DNA from: a phage
Sequence record: PV805638.1
DNA length: 64,000 bases
Strand: one strand, 5' to 3'
Part shown: positions 2-27,294 of the stretch, piece after piece
How the letters are laid out: every line of letters starts with the position of its first letter
How positions within the stretch are numbered: position 1 is the first letter of the stretch
Notes under the pieces: model-generated
Told to the model about the DNA's origin: nothing
Database searches by the model: none
What the model saw: the letters and a program-made list of their open reading frames with translations, nothing else
Position numbers and translations under genes: made by a program

Positions 2-427
2 CTGTTAACTGCCCGTGAATACCTGAAAGTAGATATCGCTAACAACTATGGCTTAGACAAGAAGACATGGGATGAGCGTATTAGCTGGTTCGATGAGAAT
101 GAAGCTAACCTGCTTAATCTGGTAGATGAAGCTGAAGAATCTGCATTGTTCTATGCTGGTGTAAACGCATGGAAAGATATGAAAGCCGGTAAGCCTATCG
201 GTTATGCTGTAGCTCTGGATGCTACATCATCCGGCTTACAGCTACTGGCTTGCCTGACTGGTGACCGTTCTGCTGCTGAACTGTGTAACGTAGTTAACTA
301 CATGGGGGAGAATGGTAAGCCATTACGTCGTGATGCTTATACAGTTATCTATCACAAGATGCTGGACATCCTTGGTGAAGCATCTCGTATTAAACGTAGT
401 GATACTAAGCAGGCCGTTAACCTATAA
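2..427 (+). CDS. T7-like single-subunit RNA polymerase (N4 RNAPII catalytic subunit), 5' part; partial, start lies upstream of window
   Basis: Open in frame from nt 2. Translation has motif A-like 'DATSSGLQ' (T7 'DGSCSGIQ') and ends 'RSDTKQAV' (T7 motif B 'RSVTKRSV'), followed by NL-stop at 425-427. Proposed exon end is U417. Confidence 0.6.
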   Translation: MLTAREYLKVDIANNYGLDKKTWDERISWFDENEANLLNLVDEAEESALFYAGVNAWKDMKAGKPIGYAVALDATSSGLQLLACLTGDRSAAELCNVVNYMGENGKPLRRDAYTVIYHKMLDILGEASRIKRSDTKQAVNL

Positions 428-1224
428 GTCATGGCGGCCTTTAAACCGGGTGAACTCATGGAACATCCCTAGTGGACAATCATGAGCCAAGTTGGTAACG
501 TAGAAAGCTCAATAAGGAGCATTCTATGTCAGAATTCAAAACGTGCAGTCGATGTAAAGAATTACTTCCTATCGAAGTATTCCCAGAGACTAAAAAAGCA
601 ATCACAGGACTCAAGACTAATTACGAGAATCGTTGCAGACCTTGCAAGGCTGCTGCTGCTCGTGAATGGCGTAAAAATAATCCCGGTTACACTGGAACTG
701 GGATTCTTAAGGCAATACCGGAAGAGCATCGTAAATGGTATTCAGCAGTCTCACTTAGACTGAGAGATGCAAAGAGCAGATGTAAAAAGCTCGGTAAGCC
801 TATGCCTGATTGCACAGTAGAGTACTTATTTGAAATCCTTAAATCACAGGAATTCAAATGTGCTTTAACTGGTGCAACCTTAGTAATTGAGTCGGGACAT
901 CCCTTGTGTCTATCATTAGACCAGATAGAGCCAAGCAAGGGATATAGTATTGATAATGTTCAATGGTTAGCTTGGTGTGTAAACCGAGCAAAGGGTGACC
1001 TTTCTACCAATGACTTTATTGATATGTGTGATGCTGTTTTGAATAACCAAAAGGTGCAGAGACTATCGAAAAGCAGCGTAAGCTGAACTTAGTAGAGTAG
1101 GCCCAAGTGGGTCGAAGCGCCCGGCTAGACTAATAGTCTAGATGATATAGTCCGAACTCACTGGTAACAGTGAGATGCAGGTAAAGCTGCTGGGGAAGAT
1201 TAACGACCTTCCTTGAACATAATG
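418..1224 (+). mobile_element. Putative group I intron carrying an HNH endonuclease ORF, inserted in RNAP motif B
   Basis: Exon 412-417 GGCCGU can pair with intron 434-439 GCGGCC, giving a U417-G434 wobble at the 5' splice site. Intron ends in G1224. The 3' region has 'GATATAGTCC' (1145-1154) and a GNRA hairpin ctcactg-gtaa-cagtgag (1157-1174). Joining 417 to 1225 restores '...KQAV-MTAFYGS'. Confidence 0.5.
526..1086 (+). CDS. HNH-family homing endonuclease-like protein (intron ORF)
   Basis: N-terminal CxxC...CxxC ('CSRCKEL', 'CRPCK') and C-terminal 'SLDQIEPSKGYSIDNVQWLAWCVNRAKG' resembling phage HNH nuclease cores. AAGGAG RBS at 515-520. Confidence 0.55.
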   Translation: MSEFKTCSRCKELLPIEVFPETKKAITGLKTNYENRCRPCKAAAAREWRKNNPGYTGTGILKAIPEEHRKWYSAVSLRLRDAKSRCKKLGKPMPDCTVEYLFEILKSQEFKCALTGATLVIESGHPLCLSLDQIEPSKGYSIDNVQWLAWCVNRAKGDLSTNDFIDMCDAVLNNQKVQRLSKSSVS

Positions 1225-1225
1225 T

Positions 1226-2020
1226 ATGACTGCATTCTATGGTTCAGAAGCCAAGCCTAAAGAAGTATTCGGTGAAGGTATTCGTCTCAAGACTTTTGAG
1301 AATGTAATGGAAACAGTTGCTAGTGGACCTTGGGCACTGAACAAGTTCTTACTGCAATGTGGTAACCCGGATGCTAGCCGTTACGTATGGGTACTGCCTG
1401 ACAATTTCCATGCTGTCATTAAGGTCATGGTTCCAGAGGTACAGACCGTTAACTTCTTAGGTAAGCCATTCGACATCACTCGTATGGTTCAGGGTACTGA
1501 AGATAAGACTCGTATGCTCTCTGCTAACATCACCCACTCTATTGATGGAATGGTGGTACGTGAGATGCTGCGTCGCTGTAACTTCGACATGAACCAGGTG
1601 AACTATATTAAGTCCCTCTGTGAAGGGACCAGTGAGTATATGCTGGGTACTAGCGAAAACTACGACATGGTTAGTCAACTGTGGCATAACTATGAGAAAT
1701 CAGGATTCCTGTCTACCCGTATCTTTGATTATCTGGATTCTGACTCAATTAAACTGGTTGATACAGATGTAATCATGGCTATGCTTAATACCATGCCTAA
1801 GAAACCATTCCCTGTAATGACCGTACATGACTGCTTCCGTTGTCATCCTAACTATGGCAATGACTTGCGTCGTCAGTACAATCAGATTCTGTCTGACATT
1901 GCTAAGAGTGACCTACTGGGCTTCATCCTGTCTCAGGTACTGGGGCAAGAGTTCTCTGCTGGTAAGCTGGATGACAGCCTCTGGCAGGACATCCTTGAAA
2001 CGGATTATGCATTAAGTTAA
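1226..2020 (+). CDS. T7-like RNA polymerase, 3' part (motif B 'YG' and motif C)
   Basis: Starts 'MTAFYGS' (T7 'MTLAYGS', motif B end) and contains 'VMTVHDCF' (T7 motif C 'HDSFG'). No Shine-Dalgarno upstream of 1226, consistent with being joined to the upstream exon. Confidence 0.6.
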   Translation: MTAFYGSEAKPKEVFGEGIRLKTFENVMETVASGPWALNKFLLQCGNPDASRYVWVLPDNFHAVIKVMVPEVQTVNFLGKPFDITRMVQGTEDKTRMLSANITHSIDGMVVREMLRRCNFDMNQVNYIKSLCEGTSEYMLGTSENYDMVSQLWHNYEKSGFLSTRIFDYLDSDSIKLVDTDVIMAMLNTMPKKPFPVMTVHDCFRCHPNYGNDLRRQYNQILSDIAKSDLLGFILSQVLGQEFSAGKLDDSLWQDILETDYALS

Positions 2021-3634: not shown

Positions 3635-3961
3635 ATGAAAACTTTAATTGCTGTTGTTCTTGTAGCTCTATCAGTTCTGTCATTCGGTGCTCAGGCATCT
3701 AGTCGTGCAACCTTATTGGAAGCTGCTGCTGATTACAAAGCCAATAATGCAAACTTTGTGAACCAGGGTTACTTCATGGGCATGGTTACTATGGGTGTGG
3801 AAGCAGGAAAGAATTGTGTACCTGACGGTATAAAATTAGGGCACATTTTTGACAGAGTGGCCTCTATTATTCTGTATGACCGAAAGGTTAATGCAGTAAA
3901 AGTACCATCAGACATGGTTCTGTTAGCGATTAATACAGCCTATCCCTGCGTTAAATCTTAA
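3635..3961 (+). CDS. Small secreted/periplasmic protein (signal peptide)
   Basis: N-terminus 'MKTLIAVVLVALSVLSFGAQASS' looks like a Sec signal peptide. Confidence 0.4.
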   Translation: MKTLIAVVLVALSVLSFGAQASSRATLLEAAADYKANNANFVNQGYFMGMVTMGVEAGKNCVPDGIKLGHIFDRVASIILYDRKVNAVKVPSDMVLLAINTAYPCVKS

Positions 3962-3995
3962 TTAGTAATTCCATTAACTTTAGGAGAGTAAGTAA

Positions 3996-5048
3996 ATGGC
4001 GAGCATTGACTCCTTGACTGTATGTAATACACGTCAAGCCCGTAACTTTATTATCCGTGCCTTGCAAGCAGGTAACGTACCGTTCCTGACTTCATCACCG
4101 GGTATGGGTAAGTCTGCAATTATTCGTTCTATTGCAGAAGAATTTGGTATGAAGCTGATTGACCATCGTTTGTCTACTTCTGCCCCGGAAGACTTATCTG
4201 GTCTACCATTCCGTAATGGTGACCGTGCAGAGTTTATCCCTTTCGCTGACTTATTCCCTATCGAGGGTGACGAAGTACCAGAAGGTTATAATGGCTGGCT
4301 CCTGTTCCTTGATGAGTTCAACTCAGCTAAAAAGGAAGTAGTAGCTGCTGCATACAAACTGATTCTAGACCGTATGACCGGACAGAAAAAACTTCACCCT
4401 AATGTGATGATTATCTGTGCCGGTAACAAAGCCACTGACCGAGCCATAGTTAACCCGCTGGGTACTGCAATGCAGTCCCGTGTTGTCCACTTCGAAATGG
4501 AACTCGACTTCGACATCTTTGTTGAAGACGTAATGATTCCTCAAGAATGGGATGAGCGTCTGGTTGCATTCTTACATGCTAACCCTGGTTATCTGCATGA
4601 CTTCGACCCTGCCCACAAGAACAAAACATTCTGTTGCCCTCGTACCTGGGACTTTGTTAACAAAGACCTCAAGAACCGACCAGAAGGTGCTTTGCCTGAT
4701 GAAGATTCTATCTACTATGCTGGACACGTTACTGCCGGTAAAGCTACAGAGTTTGTTCAGTTCACTCAGGTATACAATCGTATGATTACGATTGAGAAGG
4801 TAGTCAAAGACCCATTAGGCTGTGCACTACCGGAAGATAATAACCTGTGTTGGGCTACTGTTAACCATCTGGCTAACAAAACTACTGAAGATAACTTCGC
4901 TGATGTTCTTCAGTACATTGAACGCTTTAAAACGTTCACCCATAAGATTCTGTACTTCCGTACAGTAGGCAAAGCATTACCAGAAATTCAGGCTACCCCT
5001 GAATGGCGTAAGGCTGCTGCCAATATCTCTCGTTACATTCACGGATAA
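3996..5048 (+). CDS. MoxR-like AAA+ ATPase
   Basis: Walker A 'SPGMGKSAII' and Walker B 'LLFLDEFNSA'. Confidence 0.7.
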   Translation: MASIDSLTVCNTRQARNFIIRALQAGNVPFLTSSPGMGKSAIIRSIAEEFGMKLIDHRLSTSAPEDLSGLPFRNGDRAEFIPFADLFPIEGDEVPEGYNGWLLFLDEFNSAKKEVVAAAYKLILDRMTGQKKLHPNVMIICAGNKATDRAIVNPLGTAMQSRVVHFEMELDFDIFVEDVMIPQEWDERLVAFLHANPGYLHDFDPAHKNKTFCCPRTWDFVNKDLKNRPEGALPDEDSIYYAGHVTAGKATEFVQFTQVYNRMITIEKVVKDPLGCALPEDNNLCWATVNHLANKTTEDNFADVLQYIERFKTFTHKILYFRTVGKALPEIQATPEWRKAAANISRYIHG

Positions 5049-5055
5049 TCACAAC

Positions 5056-6231
5056 ATGAACCAGATACCTCAGCACACACTTAGTGATGAACAACTCATG
5101 CGTGAGTATGACCGTATTCAGGCCCAAGCCTTCCTAGGCAAGTCTGCTGCGTTTTTTGGTTCATTGCTGTGTAGTCTTAAGTTCTCATGGAAACGTGAGG
5201 GTTGTCCCACTGCATGTACCGATGGGATAGAACTCCATTTCAACCCTGACTTCTTTATCTGGATGTGCCCTGATGCAAGAGAAACAGTGCTAATGCACGA
5301 ACTCTGGCATGTGGCATATCTGCATGGCATCCGTTGTGGAAGCCGTGACCCGGAAGTCTGGAACCAGGCATGTGACCACTTCATTAACCTTCAGTTAGAA
5401 GAAGATGGTTACAAGTTCACTGGTATCGACGAAGGTATTTGCAAAGACCCTCAATATAAAGGATGGGTCGAAGAAGACATCTACGATGACCTGATGAAGA
5501 ACCCTCAGAAAAGGCAGAAGCCGTCGGGGGGAGCTGGAGCAAGTCTTGCTGGCGACATGAAAGCCCCCTCTTCGGGGCAGTCCCAGGGTGCTGTTGTCAA
5601 CAACGTAGTGCGTGCAATGCAAAGCCAGAAGATGGCTGGTGGAACAATGCCCGGTAAAGGTGCTGGTCGTATGGAAGAGGTTATTACCCAATTCCTTAAA
5701 CCAGTAGTTCCATGGCAGGAAGTTCTGATGAACTTCTTTACCGACATTGATGACACACATTATACGTGGGCCAGACCTAACCGTCGCTTCACTGACGTCT
5801 ATCTACCTTCTCTGGAAGATGATGAAGGACGCTTACGACACTTAGCCTACTTTGAGGATGTATCCGGTTCTATTAGTAGTGCTGACTCTCTGCGTTTTAA
5901 CTCAGAGGTTGCCTACGTTAAGAGCCAGTTCAATCCTAAGAAGATGACCCTAATTACCTTCGACGATATTATCCAAGAAGAAATAGACATCACTGAAGAA
6001 GATACTTTTGAAGAGATTAAGATTACTGGTCGTGGTGGTACAAACCTTGAACCAGTGCGCGAATGGATTATTAAGAATAAACCAACCGCTGCAATCATAT
6101 TCTCCGATATGTATGTTCGTCCAATGGAAGAATTACCATTTGATATCCCTATCATCTGGTGTGTTCTGAATAATCCTAATGCTACCGTACCTTTCGGGGA
6201 GGTAGTTCATATCCCTAAAGGAATGAAATAA
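5056..6231 (+). CDS. VWA-domain protein with N-terminal HExxH metallopeptidase-like motif
   Basis: 'HELWH' HExxH motif and a MIDAS-like 'DVSGSIS' (DxSxS); directly downstream of the AAA ATPase. Confidence 0.6.
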   Translation: MNQIPQHTLSDEQLMREYDRIQAQAFLGKSAAFFGSLLCSLKFSWKREGCPTACTDGIELHFNPDFFIWMCPDARETVLMHELWHVAYLHGIRCGSRDPEVWNQACDHFINLQLEEDGYKFTGIDEGICKDPQYKGWVEEDIYDDLMKNPQKRQKPSGGAGASLAGDMKAPSSGQSQGAVVNNVVRAMQSQKMAGGTMPGKGAGRMEEVITQFLKPVVPWQEVLMNFFTDIDDTHYTWARPNRRFTDVYLPSLEDDEGRLRHLAYFEDVSGSISSADSLRFNSEVAYVKSQFNPKKMTLITFDDIIQEEIDITEEDTFEEIKITGRGGTNLEPVREWIIKNKPTAAIIFSDMYVRPMEELPFDIPIIWCVLNNPNATVPFGEVVHIPKGMK

Positions 6232-7383: not shown

Positions 7384-7398
7384 ATTACAGGTACTCTT

Positions 7399-7779
7399 AT
7401 GTCAAACAGACAAAATGGTAAGTCTATCTTATATGGACTGGACTTAAGTAAACTGGAACAAACTGCAATGCTTACTTTAGGTATACATGACCAAGTAGAA
7501 GTGAATGGAATTGGTCCTGATGTTTGTGCAGCAATGCAAGCTGCTATTCAGAAAGGATGGACTAGTAGATCATTTAATGTTTTCCCATACATCCCTCCTG
7601 AACCTCATCTGAAATCTAAGGTAGACAGAATCATAGATAAGTTCTGGCTTAGCCCATGCGGGGATGACATGCATCTTTACCTGGCTCAAATACAAAAGAA
7701 TCCGCGTACTAAAGATGTGTTCAAAGGCAAAAGCACTACCCACCATTACCCTTGGTATAGAAGAGGTAGTAAATACTAA
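7399..7779 (+). CDS. Hypothetical protein
   Basis: The ORF-track start at 7297 lies inside the terminator; the in-frame ATG at 7399 just after it is the more plausible start. Confidence 0.35.
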   Translation: MSNRQNGKSILYGLDLSKLEQTAMLTLGIHDQVEVNGIGPDVCAAMQAAIQKGWTSRSFNVFPYIPPEPHLKSKVDRIIDKFWLSPCGDDMHLYLAQIQKNPRTKDVFKGKSTTHHYPWYRRGSKY

Positions 7780-20476: not shown

Positions 20477-20760
20477 TGACTAAGCTCTCCGGTGGTCTTA
20501 ATAACTACTATGTAGTTTTAATTAAAAATCCCCAACGGAAAGAGCAAGAGCCATATCAAGCAGAGTGTGAGGATATTATCCAAGCACTGGGCATGACCTT
20601 CGATGAAGGTTGTGCCTTTAAAGCTCTATGGCGAAATGCTGCTGCCCGTATGGGTAATGGTAAACCAGGTAACTCTTCGGTGTACGACTCAGAGAAGATT
20701 GTGCATTATGCCAATCGAATATTGAAAAAGGCTTACAATGAAAGTAACCAACAACCATGA
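20476..20760 (+). CDS. Hypothetical protein
   Basis: 94-aa ORF, coupled start. Confidence 0.3.
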   Translation: MTKLSGGLNNYYVVLIKNPQRKEQEPYQAECEDIIQALGMTFDEGCAFKALWRNAAARMGNGKPGNSSVYDSEKIVHYANRILKKAYNESNQQP

Positions 20761-21718
20761 TGTCTCACTAGCTCTGGCTGTATGGCTATTGCATGATGAG
20801 TATGATTATGTAGACAATCCTAAGTACCTGTCTGCTACTACATTGCTTAAGCCTATTAAGCAAATCGTCATGAAGCATCGTGTAGATTTCAGTGACCAGT
20901 CCATTGATGTTATGGATTTTGTTTCCACATCAATGGGTACTGGCTTACATGATTCTATCGAGAAAGCCTGGAAGCTGGGTCATAAGACTGCATTGAAGAA
21001 GCTGGGTTATCCTCAGCGAGTAATTGATGCAGTAGTCATTAACCCAACCAAAGAAGACTTTGCTGCTAACCCTGACCTTATCCCAATCTACATTGAACAA
21101 CGTGGAACCAAGCAGGTTAAGGGATGGACTATTGGTGGTAAATTCGACATCGTAACAGAAGGTCTGTTGCAAGACTTCAAGTCTACCTCAACCTATTCCT
21201 GGGTTGCTGGTTCCCGTGATGATGAACACAAGATGCAAGGCAGCTTGTACCGTTGGATTCACAACGACATCATTACTGAGGATGTAATTCGTATTAACTA
21301 CATCTTCACCGACTTCATGAAACACATGGCTAACAGCAATCCGAACTATCCTGCTAATCGTATTATGCATAAGGATATTCCGTTACTGTCTGTCGAGAAG
21401 ACTGAGCGTTGGGTGGAAGAGAAGATTCACTTAATCGAAAAGTACTGGGATGCACCTGAAGAGGAAATCCCTGAATGTACTGACGAGGAGTTGTGGCGAA
21501 CAGAGCCACAGTTCAAATACTTCTCTGATGCTTCTAAGGTAGATGTACCTGGAGCCAGAAGTACCAAAAACTTTGGCGATATGGCATCTGCCCGTATCTT
21601 CATGACTGAAAAAGGTGGCAAGGGTGCTATCAAGGTTGTGGAGGGGCAGGTTAAACGCTGTTTATATTGCCCTGTCGCATCCATTTGCAAACAAAAAGAG
21701 AGATATTTCCCATCATGA
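20738..21718 (+). CDS. PD-(D/E)xK nuclease with C-terminal Cys cluster (Cas4/RecB-like)
   Basis: 'GKFDIV...LLQDFK' nuclease-like core and C-terminal 'C...CLYCPVASIC' (CxxCx5C) typical of Fe-S nucleases. Confidence 0.45.
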   Translation: MKVTNNHDVSLALAVWLLHDEYDYVDNPKYLSATTLLKPIKQIVMKHRVDFSDQSIDVMDFVSTSMGTGLHDSIEKAWKLGHKTALKKLGYPQRVIDAVVINPTKEDFAANPDLIPIYIEQRGTKQVKGWTIGGKFDIVTEGLLQDFKSTSTYSWVAGSRDDEHKMQGSLYRWIHNDIITEDVIRINYIFTDFMKHMANSNPNYPANRIMHKDIPLLSVEKTERWVEEKIHLIEKYWDAPEEEIPECTDEELWRTEPQFKYFSDASKVDVPGARSTKNFGDMASARIFMTEKGGKGAIKVVEGQVKRCLYCPVASICKQKERYFPS

Positions 21719-26526: not shown

Positions 26527-27294
26527 TCTGGTAGGTGGCTCAGAAGCTGCTGCTAGGTGTGGTAGTGTTTATAGTTCTGATGCTACTACTGGTCAGGATT
26601 ATAGACGTGTCGGCTCCATACATAGCTTTTATCATCACTGTCATTATCCTGTGGAAATGCAGTGGTAAACACGGTGGTGACAAGCCGCCAGAATAACAAC
26701 AACCGAACCAGTGGATTGGAATACTCTCCCCAGTCCATTGGTTCAACCGAGGCTGATATGAACAAATTTACTATTCACTGGCTCAATGGAAAGGTTAGTT
26801 CTTTCATGGGTGGAGAACCTGTTGAAGGAAGCATTGAAAAAGAGTAGTTAATATCGTGAAGGGTTCTGTTAGAATCCTTTGAGATAGGAACTCCTATCAT
26901 AACCATTCTTAACTTAATCCTGCCGTATGGCACTGACGCTAGGGGTGGCCCCCCATCCGTCAGACAGACTATTTTAAGAATAGGTTATCACAGAAAATGT
27001 AAAGCAACATTTGGGTTAATCAATGGCCTCTCCTATAGGGGCCATTTCTGAATCTCAGGCTATATCCCAAAGATTAGTGTCTTTGGGATAAGGCTTCAGA
27101 TCCCTTATCAAACTAACGCTCATGTTGAGCACAACATTAACCAATAATGTCGGATAGTTCGTTACGCTATTCATTCAGCATCGAGATGTTAGGTCTTACA
27201 TGTAAAATAAAACATAGGGTAAAGAGGGACTCATCCTCCCTCTCCTATTATAATGGTCGAGGTAGCACGTAGGCATGTGTAGAAGGTCGCTACT

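Follow-up and report, generated by a model that had tools for sequence, protein, structure and literature searches.

Group I introns that carry nuclease genes and interrupt the active-site codons of polymerase genes are a textbook theme in phage biology. In N4-type phages, the product of gene 16 is the RNAP2 subunit of the heterodimeric RNA polymerase II and bears a T7-like motif B. We analyzed a 64,000-nucleotide (nt) stretch of phage DNA from sequence record PV805638.1 (hereafter the window, numbered from its first letter), which carries an 807-nt insertion at positions 418-1224, inside the gene 16 (RNAP2) homologue. Judging from its sequence, the phage is a G7C-like coliphage (Gamaleyavirus, Schitoviridae), and the insertion is almost certainly a mobile intron of group I, subgroup IA2, placed in the motif-B codons of this gene.

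Babenko et al. (2019, bioRxiv 10.1101/542787) described an insertion of about 800 bp in g16 of N4G2 and Sz33, two G7C-like horse phages. In that study, splicing of g16 in infected cells was established by reverse transcription polymerase chain reaction (RT-PCR) and sequencing of the junction, a cloned intron-containing g16 in a T7-promoter vector yielded recombinant gp16 of the spliced size, and a junction peptide of gp16, QAVMTAFYGSEAK, was detected by matrix-assisted laser desorption/ionization time-of-flight (MALDI-TOF) mass spectrometry. This peptide is exactly the spliced junction of the window. Because Babenko et al. verified g16 splicing experimentally, the central claim was already known: the intron and its splicing have been described, and the scientific surprise is small. 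The earlier note on this DNA, made from the letters alone, had counted an intron in an N4-type RNA polymerase as not known to be described, which the 2019 report contradicts. Papers dealing with JWAlpha and with the core genome of N4-like phages questioned the function of the interrupted RNAP2 without invoking an intron (PMC3915230, PMC4193335), and the ZC08 paper treated a similar case as a homing-endonuclease insertion.

The window begins about 5 bases inside the gene 16 homologue, and the locus is composed of the following parts:

2..417, + strand, RNAP2 exon 1, with about its first 2 codons cut off by the window start and terminating in ...RSDTKQA-V(GT|)
418..1224, + strand, group I (IA2) intron of 807 nt, with limits taken from the intronless G7C allele, and with RF00028 matches and covariation
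1225..2020, + strand, RNAP2 exon 2, opening with U|AUG ACU; the protein reads V-MTAFYGS

G7C gp16 is encoded by a single 405-codon gene without intron, which reads uninterrupted as ...AAGCAGGCAGT|TATGACTGCG. Relative to this allele, 807 nt separate T417 from T1225 in the window and the borders are exact, with U417 as the last exon base before the intron and G1224, the proposed terminal G, as the final inserted base. Splicing 2-417 to 1225-2020 in silico yields a 403-amino-acid (aa) frame that is 97.3% identical to G7C gp16 without gaps. The Pfam family RNA_pol (PF00940) covers residues 6-146 of the spliced product, and residues 2-403 align with residues 4-404 of N4 RNAP2 (6DT7 chain B; E=2.5e-194). 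N4 RNAP2 reads KQAIMTALYGSEAK, continuous across the junction position, and M1226 is therefore an internal motif-B residue and not an initiator. The claim that '...RSDTKQAV' and 'MTAFYGS' together rebuild motif B is thus borne out: both frames were confirmed, and the alignment with gp16 of N4 that had been suggested as a check shows RNAP2 to be colinear across motif B, as it is with G7C gp16.

A megablast search with positions 1-2100 of the window matched 62 phage records, 50 of them from Escherichia phages, at 87-96% identity. The insertion is present in none of these 62 records matching the exons, and none covers 80% of the query; all align in two or three pieces, skipping about 807-808 query bases. 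Among G7C-like phages that are more than 90% identical, the presence of the intron varies.

Without splicing, the exon-1 frame reads ...RSDTKQAV followed by NL*, with a stop at 427, 10 nt past the start of the insertion; exon 2, by coincidence, opens with ATG. Such an arrangement would suit a non-splicing endonuclease cassette, in which RNAP2 is made as two polypeptides, one ending in ...KQAVNL* and the other starting at M1226, within a three-piece polymerase that includes RNAP1; the interrupted genes of JWAlpha, HN04, phi 1, pVco-5 and XC38 are annotated in pieces in GenBank. We consider this explanation very improbable. No purine-rich Shine-Dalgarno sequence was found in the 20 nt upstream of ATG1226, in agreement with the statement that the downstream exon lacks a ribosome-binding site, and M1226 occupies a conserved internal position of motif B. 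Moreover, the corresponding junction in the Acinetobacter phage XC38 has no start codon, and both splicing and a junction-spanning peptide have been reported for g16 of Sz33 and N4G2.

The reading as a spliced group I intron is supported by the RNA structure modelled for 418-1224 and the adjoining exon ends. Its elements are listed below; pairing values and two-sided changes refer to the alignment of 13 same-site introns described further on.

412-417 (exon GGCCGU) with 434-439 (guide GCGGCC), + strand, P1, its U417·G434 pair lying at the 5' splice site
428-433 (GUCAUG) with 1225-1230 (UAUGAC, the first six exon-2 bases), + strand, P10, 6 bp, directly adjoining the guide strand of P1
446-451 with 1119-1124, + strand, P3, 100% paired, three pairs changed on both sides
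455-460 with 481-486, + strand, P4, 98.7% paired
466-468 with 474-476, + strand, P5
487-488 with 1053-1054, + strand, P6, 100% paired, one pair changing on both sides
492-496 with 1046-1050, + strand, P6a, the stem around the intron open reading frame (ORF), 100% paired, 5/5 pairs changing on both sides
1055..1066, + strand, J6/7 and the P7 5' strand, GACUAU at 1061-1066 being the R element, within the ORF (..VQRL..)
1061-1066 with 1147-1152 (AUAGUC, S element), + strand, P7
1071-1073 with 1088-1090, + strand, P7.1, changes on both sides
1074-1077 with 1082-1085, + strand, P7.1a, GUAA loop, with the ORF stop TGA (1084-1086) inside the helix
1100-1104 with 1109-1113, + strand, P7.2 (GGCCC-AAGU-GGGUC), 100% paired, three pairs changed on both sides
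1125-1131 with 1135-1141, + strand, P8, 97% paired, 5/5 outer pairs changing on both sides
1157-1163 with 1168-1174, + strand, P9, GUAA loop
1177-1180 with 1187-1190, + strand, P9.1
1192-1198 with 1208-1214, + strand, P9.2, loop AUUAACGAC

In the window, each of the 77 pairs in the model is canonical. The catalytic core is complete: it comprises P3-P8 and P4-P6, has the pseudoknot of P3 and P7, and includes elements P, Q, R and S, with J3/4 between the P3 5' strand and P4 (region 446..486) and J8/7 between P8 and the P7 3' strand (region 1119..1152); the intron has no P2. The element GATATAGTCC and the GNRA-capped hairpin near the 3' end, both noticed previously, were located at 1144-1153 and at 1157-1174 (GUAA loop), respectively. 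By the criterion used for subgroup IA2, a G-U-A links P7.1 and P7.2, two additional helices located between P7 and P3' (PMC3428280). In the window, both helices are present, a GUA linker precedes P7.2, and AGUAGAGUA sits between P7.1/7.1a and P7.2; the intron is assigned to subgroup IA2 on this modelled structure. A first assignment, in which P7 was sought directly upstream of P3', was dropped, and the spacing between P7 and P3' is accounted for by an R element placed within the ORF and by P7.1 and P7.2 helices like those of intron orf142-I2 of Staphylococcus phage Twort.

Introns related to that of the window occupy the same site in other Schitoviridae. By blastn, insertions about 75% identical are found at this place in JWAlpha and JWDelta, two Achromobacter phages, and in the Burkholderia phages HN02, HN04 and HN05, and more diverged same-site introns in the Vibrio phages phi 1 and pVco-5/7. 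These phages with split RNAP2 carry a homologous intron and endonuclease in the identical codon phase, with 60-79% nt identity to the window in the ribozyme core and 43-56% aa identity in the endonuclease; the Vibrio versions carry P2, whereas the window intron does not. Splicing JWAlpha, HN04, phi 1 and pVco-5 in silico gave in-frame, stop-free products. DNA patterns built from the core sequence brought up additional introns at this site in IMG/VR and metagenomes (L093, L102, L111, L122, L128, L130 and L133), and near-identical copies occur in two G7C-like contigs (L121 and L129). These ribozyme-core patterns were far more fruitful than a scan of IMG/VR with an endonuclease profile, which gave mainly distant endonucleases in other genes. 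Endonucleases 91% identical to that of the window form a cluster in 13 contigs with the order exon 1-endonuclease-exon 2. One same-site intron (L102, identical to L106 and L124) is a natural 325-nt derivative whose endonuclease gene is almost wholly deleted; it retains the ribosome-binding site and the last ~15 ORF codons, which form the ribozyme core.

For a formal assessment of covariation, the ORF-less cores of 13 same-site introns, drawn from several Schitoviridae genera and from metagenomes, were aligned, the window structure was projected onto the alignment and the pairs were counted. Controls consisted of 500 shuffles and of slides by ±1-3 columns.

Standard-pair cells: observed 92.4%; shuffled 76.6 ± 0.8%; slid 33-41%
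Pairs (of 77) with two-sided changes: observed 44; shuffled 27.8 ± 2.6; slid 11-14
Covariation score: observed 0.478; shuffled 0.171; slid 0.06-0.09

On all three measures, 0 of the 500 shuffles matched the observed values. P10 is paired in 87% of cells across the 13 sequences, and helices 16-19 (P9 region) are 85-95% paired with numerous compensatory changes. The R-element stretch is invariant in the 13 sequences, and the C-terminal QRLSK is kept at the protein level; since P7 never varies, it yields no covariation information.

The exon-intron helices follow the same pattern. The U-G wobble proposed for P1 is present, and exon and guide covary, reading GGCCGU/GCGGCC in the window, JWAlpha and HN04, GGCGAU/GUCGCC in L093, GGCCAU/GUGGCC in L102, AGCGAU/GUCGCU in L128 and L133, and CGCGGU/GCCGCG in L130. 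Such tracking of the coding exon by the guide would be expected only of a functional RNA in which exon pairs with intron. The Ala codon within P1 is GCC in all three intron-containing alleles aligned (window, L121 and L129), and it is GCA or GCT in all four intronless G7C-like alleles aligned. Compensatory changes that maintain helices, including P1 and P10 with their exon strands, speak against separately translated halves, because selection on these helices makes sense only if the RNA splices.

Rfam was searched on 300-1400 in E-value mode, the gathering score of the group I intron model RF00028 being 50. The covariance check suggested in the earlier note gave matches below this score: RF00028 matches at 835-1174 (R element, P8, J8/7 and P9) with E=1.4e-5 and 30.2 bits, and a second match of 17.7 bits covers 382-635 (P1 and P3-P6). 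At the gathering score there is no match anywhere in the 64-kb window, and the half-matches become visible only in E-value mode; the 30.2-bit match is the sole group I signal across the 64 kb. The low score is explained by the ORF, which splits the model match. The ORF-less 325-nt relative L102 scores 49.8 bits (E=1.3e-9) over the full model, positions 1-253, including P1.

The intron ORF and the element that may control it are as follows:

526..1086, + strand, intron ORF of 186 aa in the P6a loop, encoding a ββα-Me / endonuclease VII-like putative homing endonuclease
498..529, + strand, hairpin over AAGGAG (514-519) and AUG (526-528), ΔG -14.6 kcal/mol, z = -4.9

An HNH-like ORF with its own ribosome-binding site had been proposed for this segment. 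The ORF and the AAGGAG at 514-519 upstream of the start at 526-528 were confirmed, but a canonical HNH assignment was not. The product contains the motifs CxxC...CxxC and LSLDQIEP..GY..NVQW..NRAKG and matches PHROG 1035 'endonuclease VII' (E=4e-32). Pfam gave no family for the ORF at E≤1, HNH models included, and a sequence search of the Protein Data Bank (PDB) gave no meaningful match. Its AlphaFold model has a predicted local distance difference test (pLDDT) score of 88.9; the best Foldseek matches in the PDB are Cas9 HNH domains, PacI, Gme HNH, McrA and Hpy99I, all weak (E 5e-3 to 0.2), with none at ≤1e-3. In metagenomes the ORF product has over 150 homologues with lengths near 186 aa, many of them on N4-like contigs of 72-77 kb. 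Over 55 homologues at 44-91% identity, 26 residues are invariant, among them the four Zn-ligand Cys, D132, Y140, N144, N153 and K156. In place of the canonical HNH His, the 'DH' position has Q, K or R after the Asp (D-Q/K/R), and no His is invariant among the 55. Given this conservation around a full-length ORF, the His-less motif is a family trait and not a lesion. By its motifs and predicted fold, the ORF product is probably a member of the endonuclease VII/HNH superfamily, a ββα-Me nuclease whose active site is non-canonical and whose activity is presumed. G7C gp15.1 (L001 858-1436), a free-standing endonuclease encoded directly upstream of gene 16, is a distant relative of the window ORF (526-1083), with 25% identity (pairwise E=3e-6) and with CxxC and SLD.(I/L)..KGYS.DN common to both.

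The ORF overlaps the ribozyme: its final ~10-12 codons (..KVQRLSKSSVS*) double as J6/7, P7 and P7.1, and the C-terminus is conserved in the protein because the same codons form the ribozyme core. At the other end, 9 of the 11 lineages that carry the endonuclease have a stable hairpin with the AUG in its 3' strand, and the stem sequences are wholly different between lineages. By a general rule quoted in PMC3984707, the start hairpin would restrict translation into the ribozyme core.

The missing canonical His and the lack of a Pfam HNH match could also indicate an intron in decay, with a ribozyme that still splices, an ORF left as a dead or domesticated relic and an element now fixed and immobile in its lineage. 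That a path of decay exists is evident from L102, which lost the ORF and kept the ribozyme. For the window itself this account is unlikely, as the ORF has its full length of 186 aa and belongs to a family with 26 invariant residues in 55 homologues, and the patchy distribution of the intron among G7C-like phages more than 90% identical argues for recent mobility. Indirect support for homing also comes from introns at this one site in several genera and from the GCC codon, matched to P1, in intron-bearing alleles. In a test for horizontal transfer, the endonuclease was 54-56% identical to that of the window in the proteobacterial phages against 44-55% for the host gene, and 43-45% against 31-35% in the Vibrio phages; this gap is only suggestive of horizontal transfer.

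Several observations weigh against the identification of the insertion as an active, mobile group I intron. The RF00028 score is below gathering (30.2 vs 50), and Rfam was also negative for the g16 insertion in the hands of the preprint authors (bioRxiv 10.1101/542787). The ORF has neither the canonical HNH histidine nor a Pfam HNH match. That the N4G2/Sz33 intron is the one in the window is inferred from agreement in phage group, gene and size and from the common junction peptide. In the G7C-like phage 10Gb, an insertion of about 800 bp in g39 does not splice and leaves two polypeptides, fragments of the DNA polymerase (bioRxiv 10.1101/542787); split expression is therefore not exotic in this group, a point that also favors the two-polypeptide explanation for RNAP2. 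The group I reading of the earlier note nevertheless holds up on P1, P10, the terminal G, the complete IA2 core and covariation. It had overlooked P10, the R element and P7 where the ORF ends, the helices P7.1 and P7.2, and the earlier publication.

The following mechanism is the most likely one for the IA2 intron. In the early transcript, the guide 5'-GUCAUG|GCGGCC-3' (428-439) pairs with the end of exon 1 (P1) and the start of exon 2 (P10), as its sequence and covariation show. By analogy with the family, the P3-P8/P4-P6 core would bind guanosine in P7, and two transesterifications would free the intron after G1224 and ligate GU|U AUG, giving ...KQAVMTAFYGS...; the window intron is thus predicted to self-splice in a guanosine-initiated reaction. 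Splicing in vivo has been shown for the g16 intron of Sz33 and N4G2. The start hairpin may keep ribosomes off the ribozyme core until or unless it is opened. In a mixed infection, the endonuclease presumably cuts or nicks an intronless gene 16 near motif B, and recombinational repair would then copy the intron into the intronless allele.

More tentatively, and with less than even odds, the His-less endonuclease VII-like family may target the near-universal motif-B sequence of N4-type RNAP2, which would enable homing across Schitoviridae genera and interference competition against intronless co-infecting phages, as in ΦPA3. The start hairpin and the overlap of ORF and ribozyme would then couple expression of the endonuclease to splicing of the gene responsible for the early-to-middle switch.

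Further insertions were seen in and around the polymerase genes of related phages. In the Acinetobacter phage XC38 (L005 1663-2490), the RNAP2 intron occupies a different position in motif B, 7 nt downstream of that in the window (ACC U|CU); this intron has its own P1 (UGACCU/GGGUCA) and a 45%-identical endonuclease, its spliced product reads ...KRAVMTSGYGS..., and its exon-2 junction has no start codon. A 74.8-kb G7C-like sequence labelled Salmonella enterica (L134; GCA_026132285.1, JANDFC010000012.1) carries a motif-B intron 92% identical in nt to that of the window. At ~3806-4750 it has a second RNAP2 insertion, at motif C (LTVHD|CFRCHPNYG), with group-I-like 5' sequences and an AP2/HNH_3 endonuclease ORF, and RNAP2 therefore appears to hold a second intron homing site. 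In the DNA polymerase I of Escherichia phage KarlSchell_Bas89 (L008), which is annotated as a join and gives an RF00028 match of 48.1 bits, the endonuclease family of the window is seen to serve introns in other polymerase genes as well. About 120 extra nt in the gp16 region of the intronless Gamaleyavirus NAN33P5 (L141 ~1518-1635) were considered as an intron remnant and rejected, since they are intergenic and follow the gp16 stop; the gp16 region of phi G17 also shows an extra ~120 nt.

Compared with G7C, the window lacks the free-standing HNH genes gp24.1, gp41.1 and gp47.1 (at 5049-5144, ~20700-20800 and ~26730-26830) and has about 370 extra nt at 7394-7763, with a small ORF at ~7397-7779. 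The DNA polymerase gene 39 of the window is uninterrupted.

For annotation, the result is that gene 16 of the window is one spliced gene, 2-417 joined to 1225-2020, and not two genes and a hypothetical protein. The same correction applies to the split RNAP2 of JWAlpha, JWDelta, HN02/04/05, phi 1, pVco-5/7 and Acinetobacter phage XC38. What goes beyond prior work here is an IA2 model that includes P1 and P10, formal support by covariation and the reason why Rfam misses the intron, along with the endonuclease fold, its overlap with the ribozyme and the start-codon hairpin, and the recognition of the 'split RNAP2' of several other Schitoviridae as the same intron. The catalytic motifs of the N4-type middle polymerase emerge as recurrent intron homing sites.

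Set beside known systems, the window intron has in common with that of N4G2 and Sz33 the phage group, the gene (RNAP2 subunit A), a size of about 800 bp, a homing-nuclease ORF and the junction peptide. The model of Babenko et al. is a generic stem-loop picture of what 'may be type I introns', without the IA2 assignment, P1/P10 or comparative data. In the jumbo phage ΦPA3, the endonuclease of an RNA polymerase-subunit intron acts on a relative that co-infects and whose allele is intronless (Birkholz et al. 2024, as summarized in PMC12908238). ΦPA3 differs from the N4-type case of the window in its multisubunit polymerase and its nucleus-forming lifestyle, and a competitive advantage was shown for ΦPA3. 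At the level of the ribozyme, the core motifs of Twort orf142-I2 (IA2; sequence checked in AF132670) are nearly superimposable on those of the window: both have J6/7-P7 GUGCA.(A/C)GACUAU, P7.2 GG...AAGUG...CGAA, J8/7-P7' UGAUAUAGUC, L9.2 A.UAACGA. and the tail AACAUAAU(U)G. The Twort intron, however, has P2, no ORF and a structural host gene, whereas the window intron has no P2 and an ORF-bearing P6a loop of 544 nt. The IA2 introns of Pf-WMP3 (I-PfoP3I), ΦI and W31 resemble the window intron in lacking P2, in the GUA-joined P7.1/P7.2, in a short P10, in an ORF that extends from P6a through P6, P7 and P7.1 and in striking a polymerase catalytic motif (PMC3428280). They encode HNH endonucleases and reside in the DNA polymerase genes of T7-like phages, while the window intron interrupts an RNA polymerase gene and encodes a His-less, endonuclease VII-like protein.

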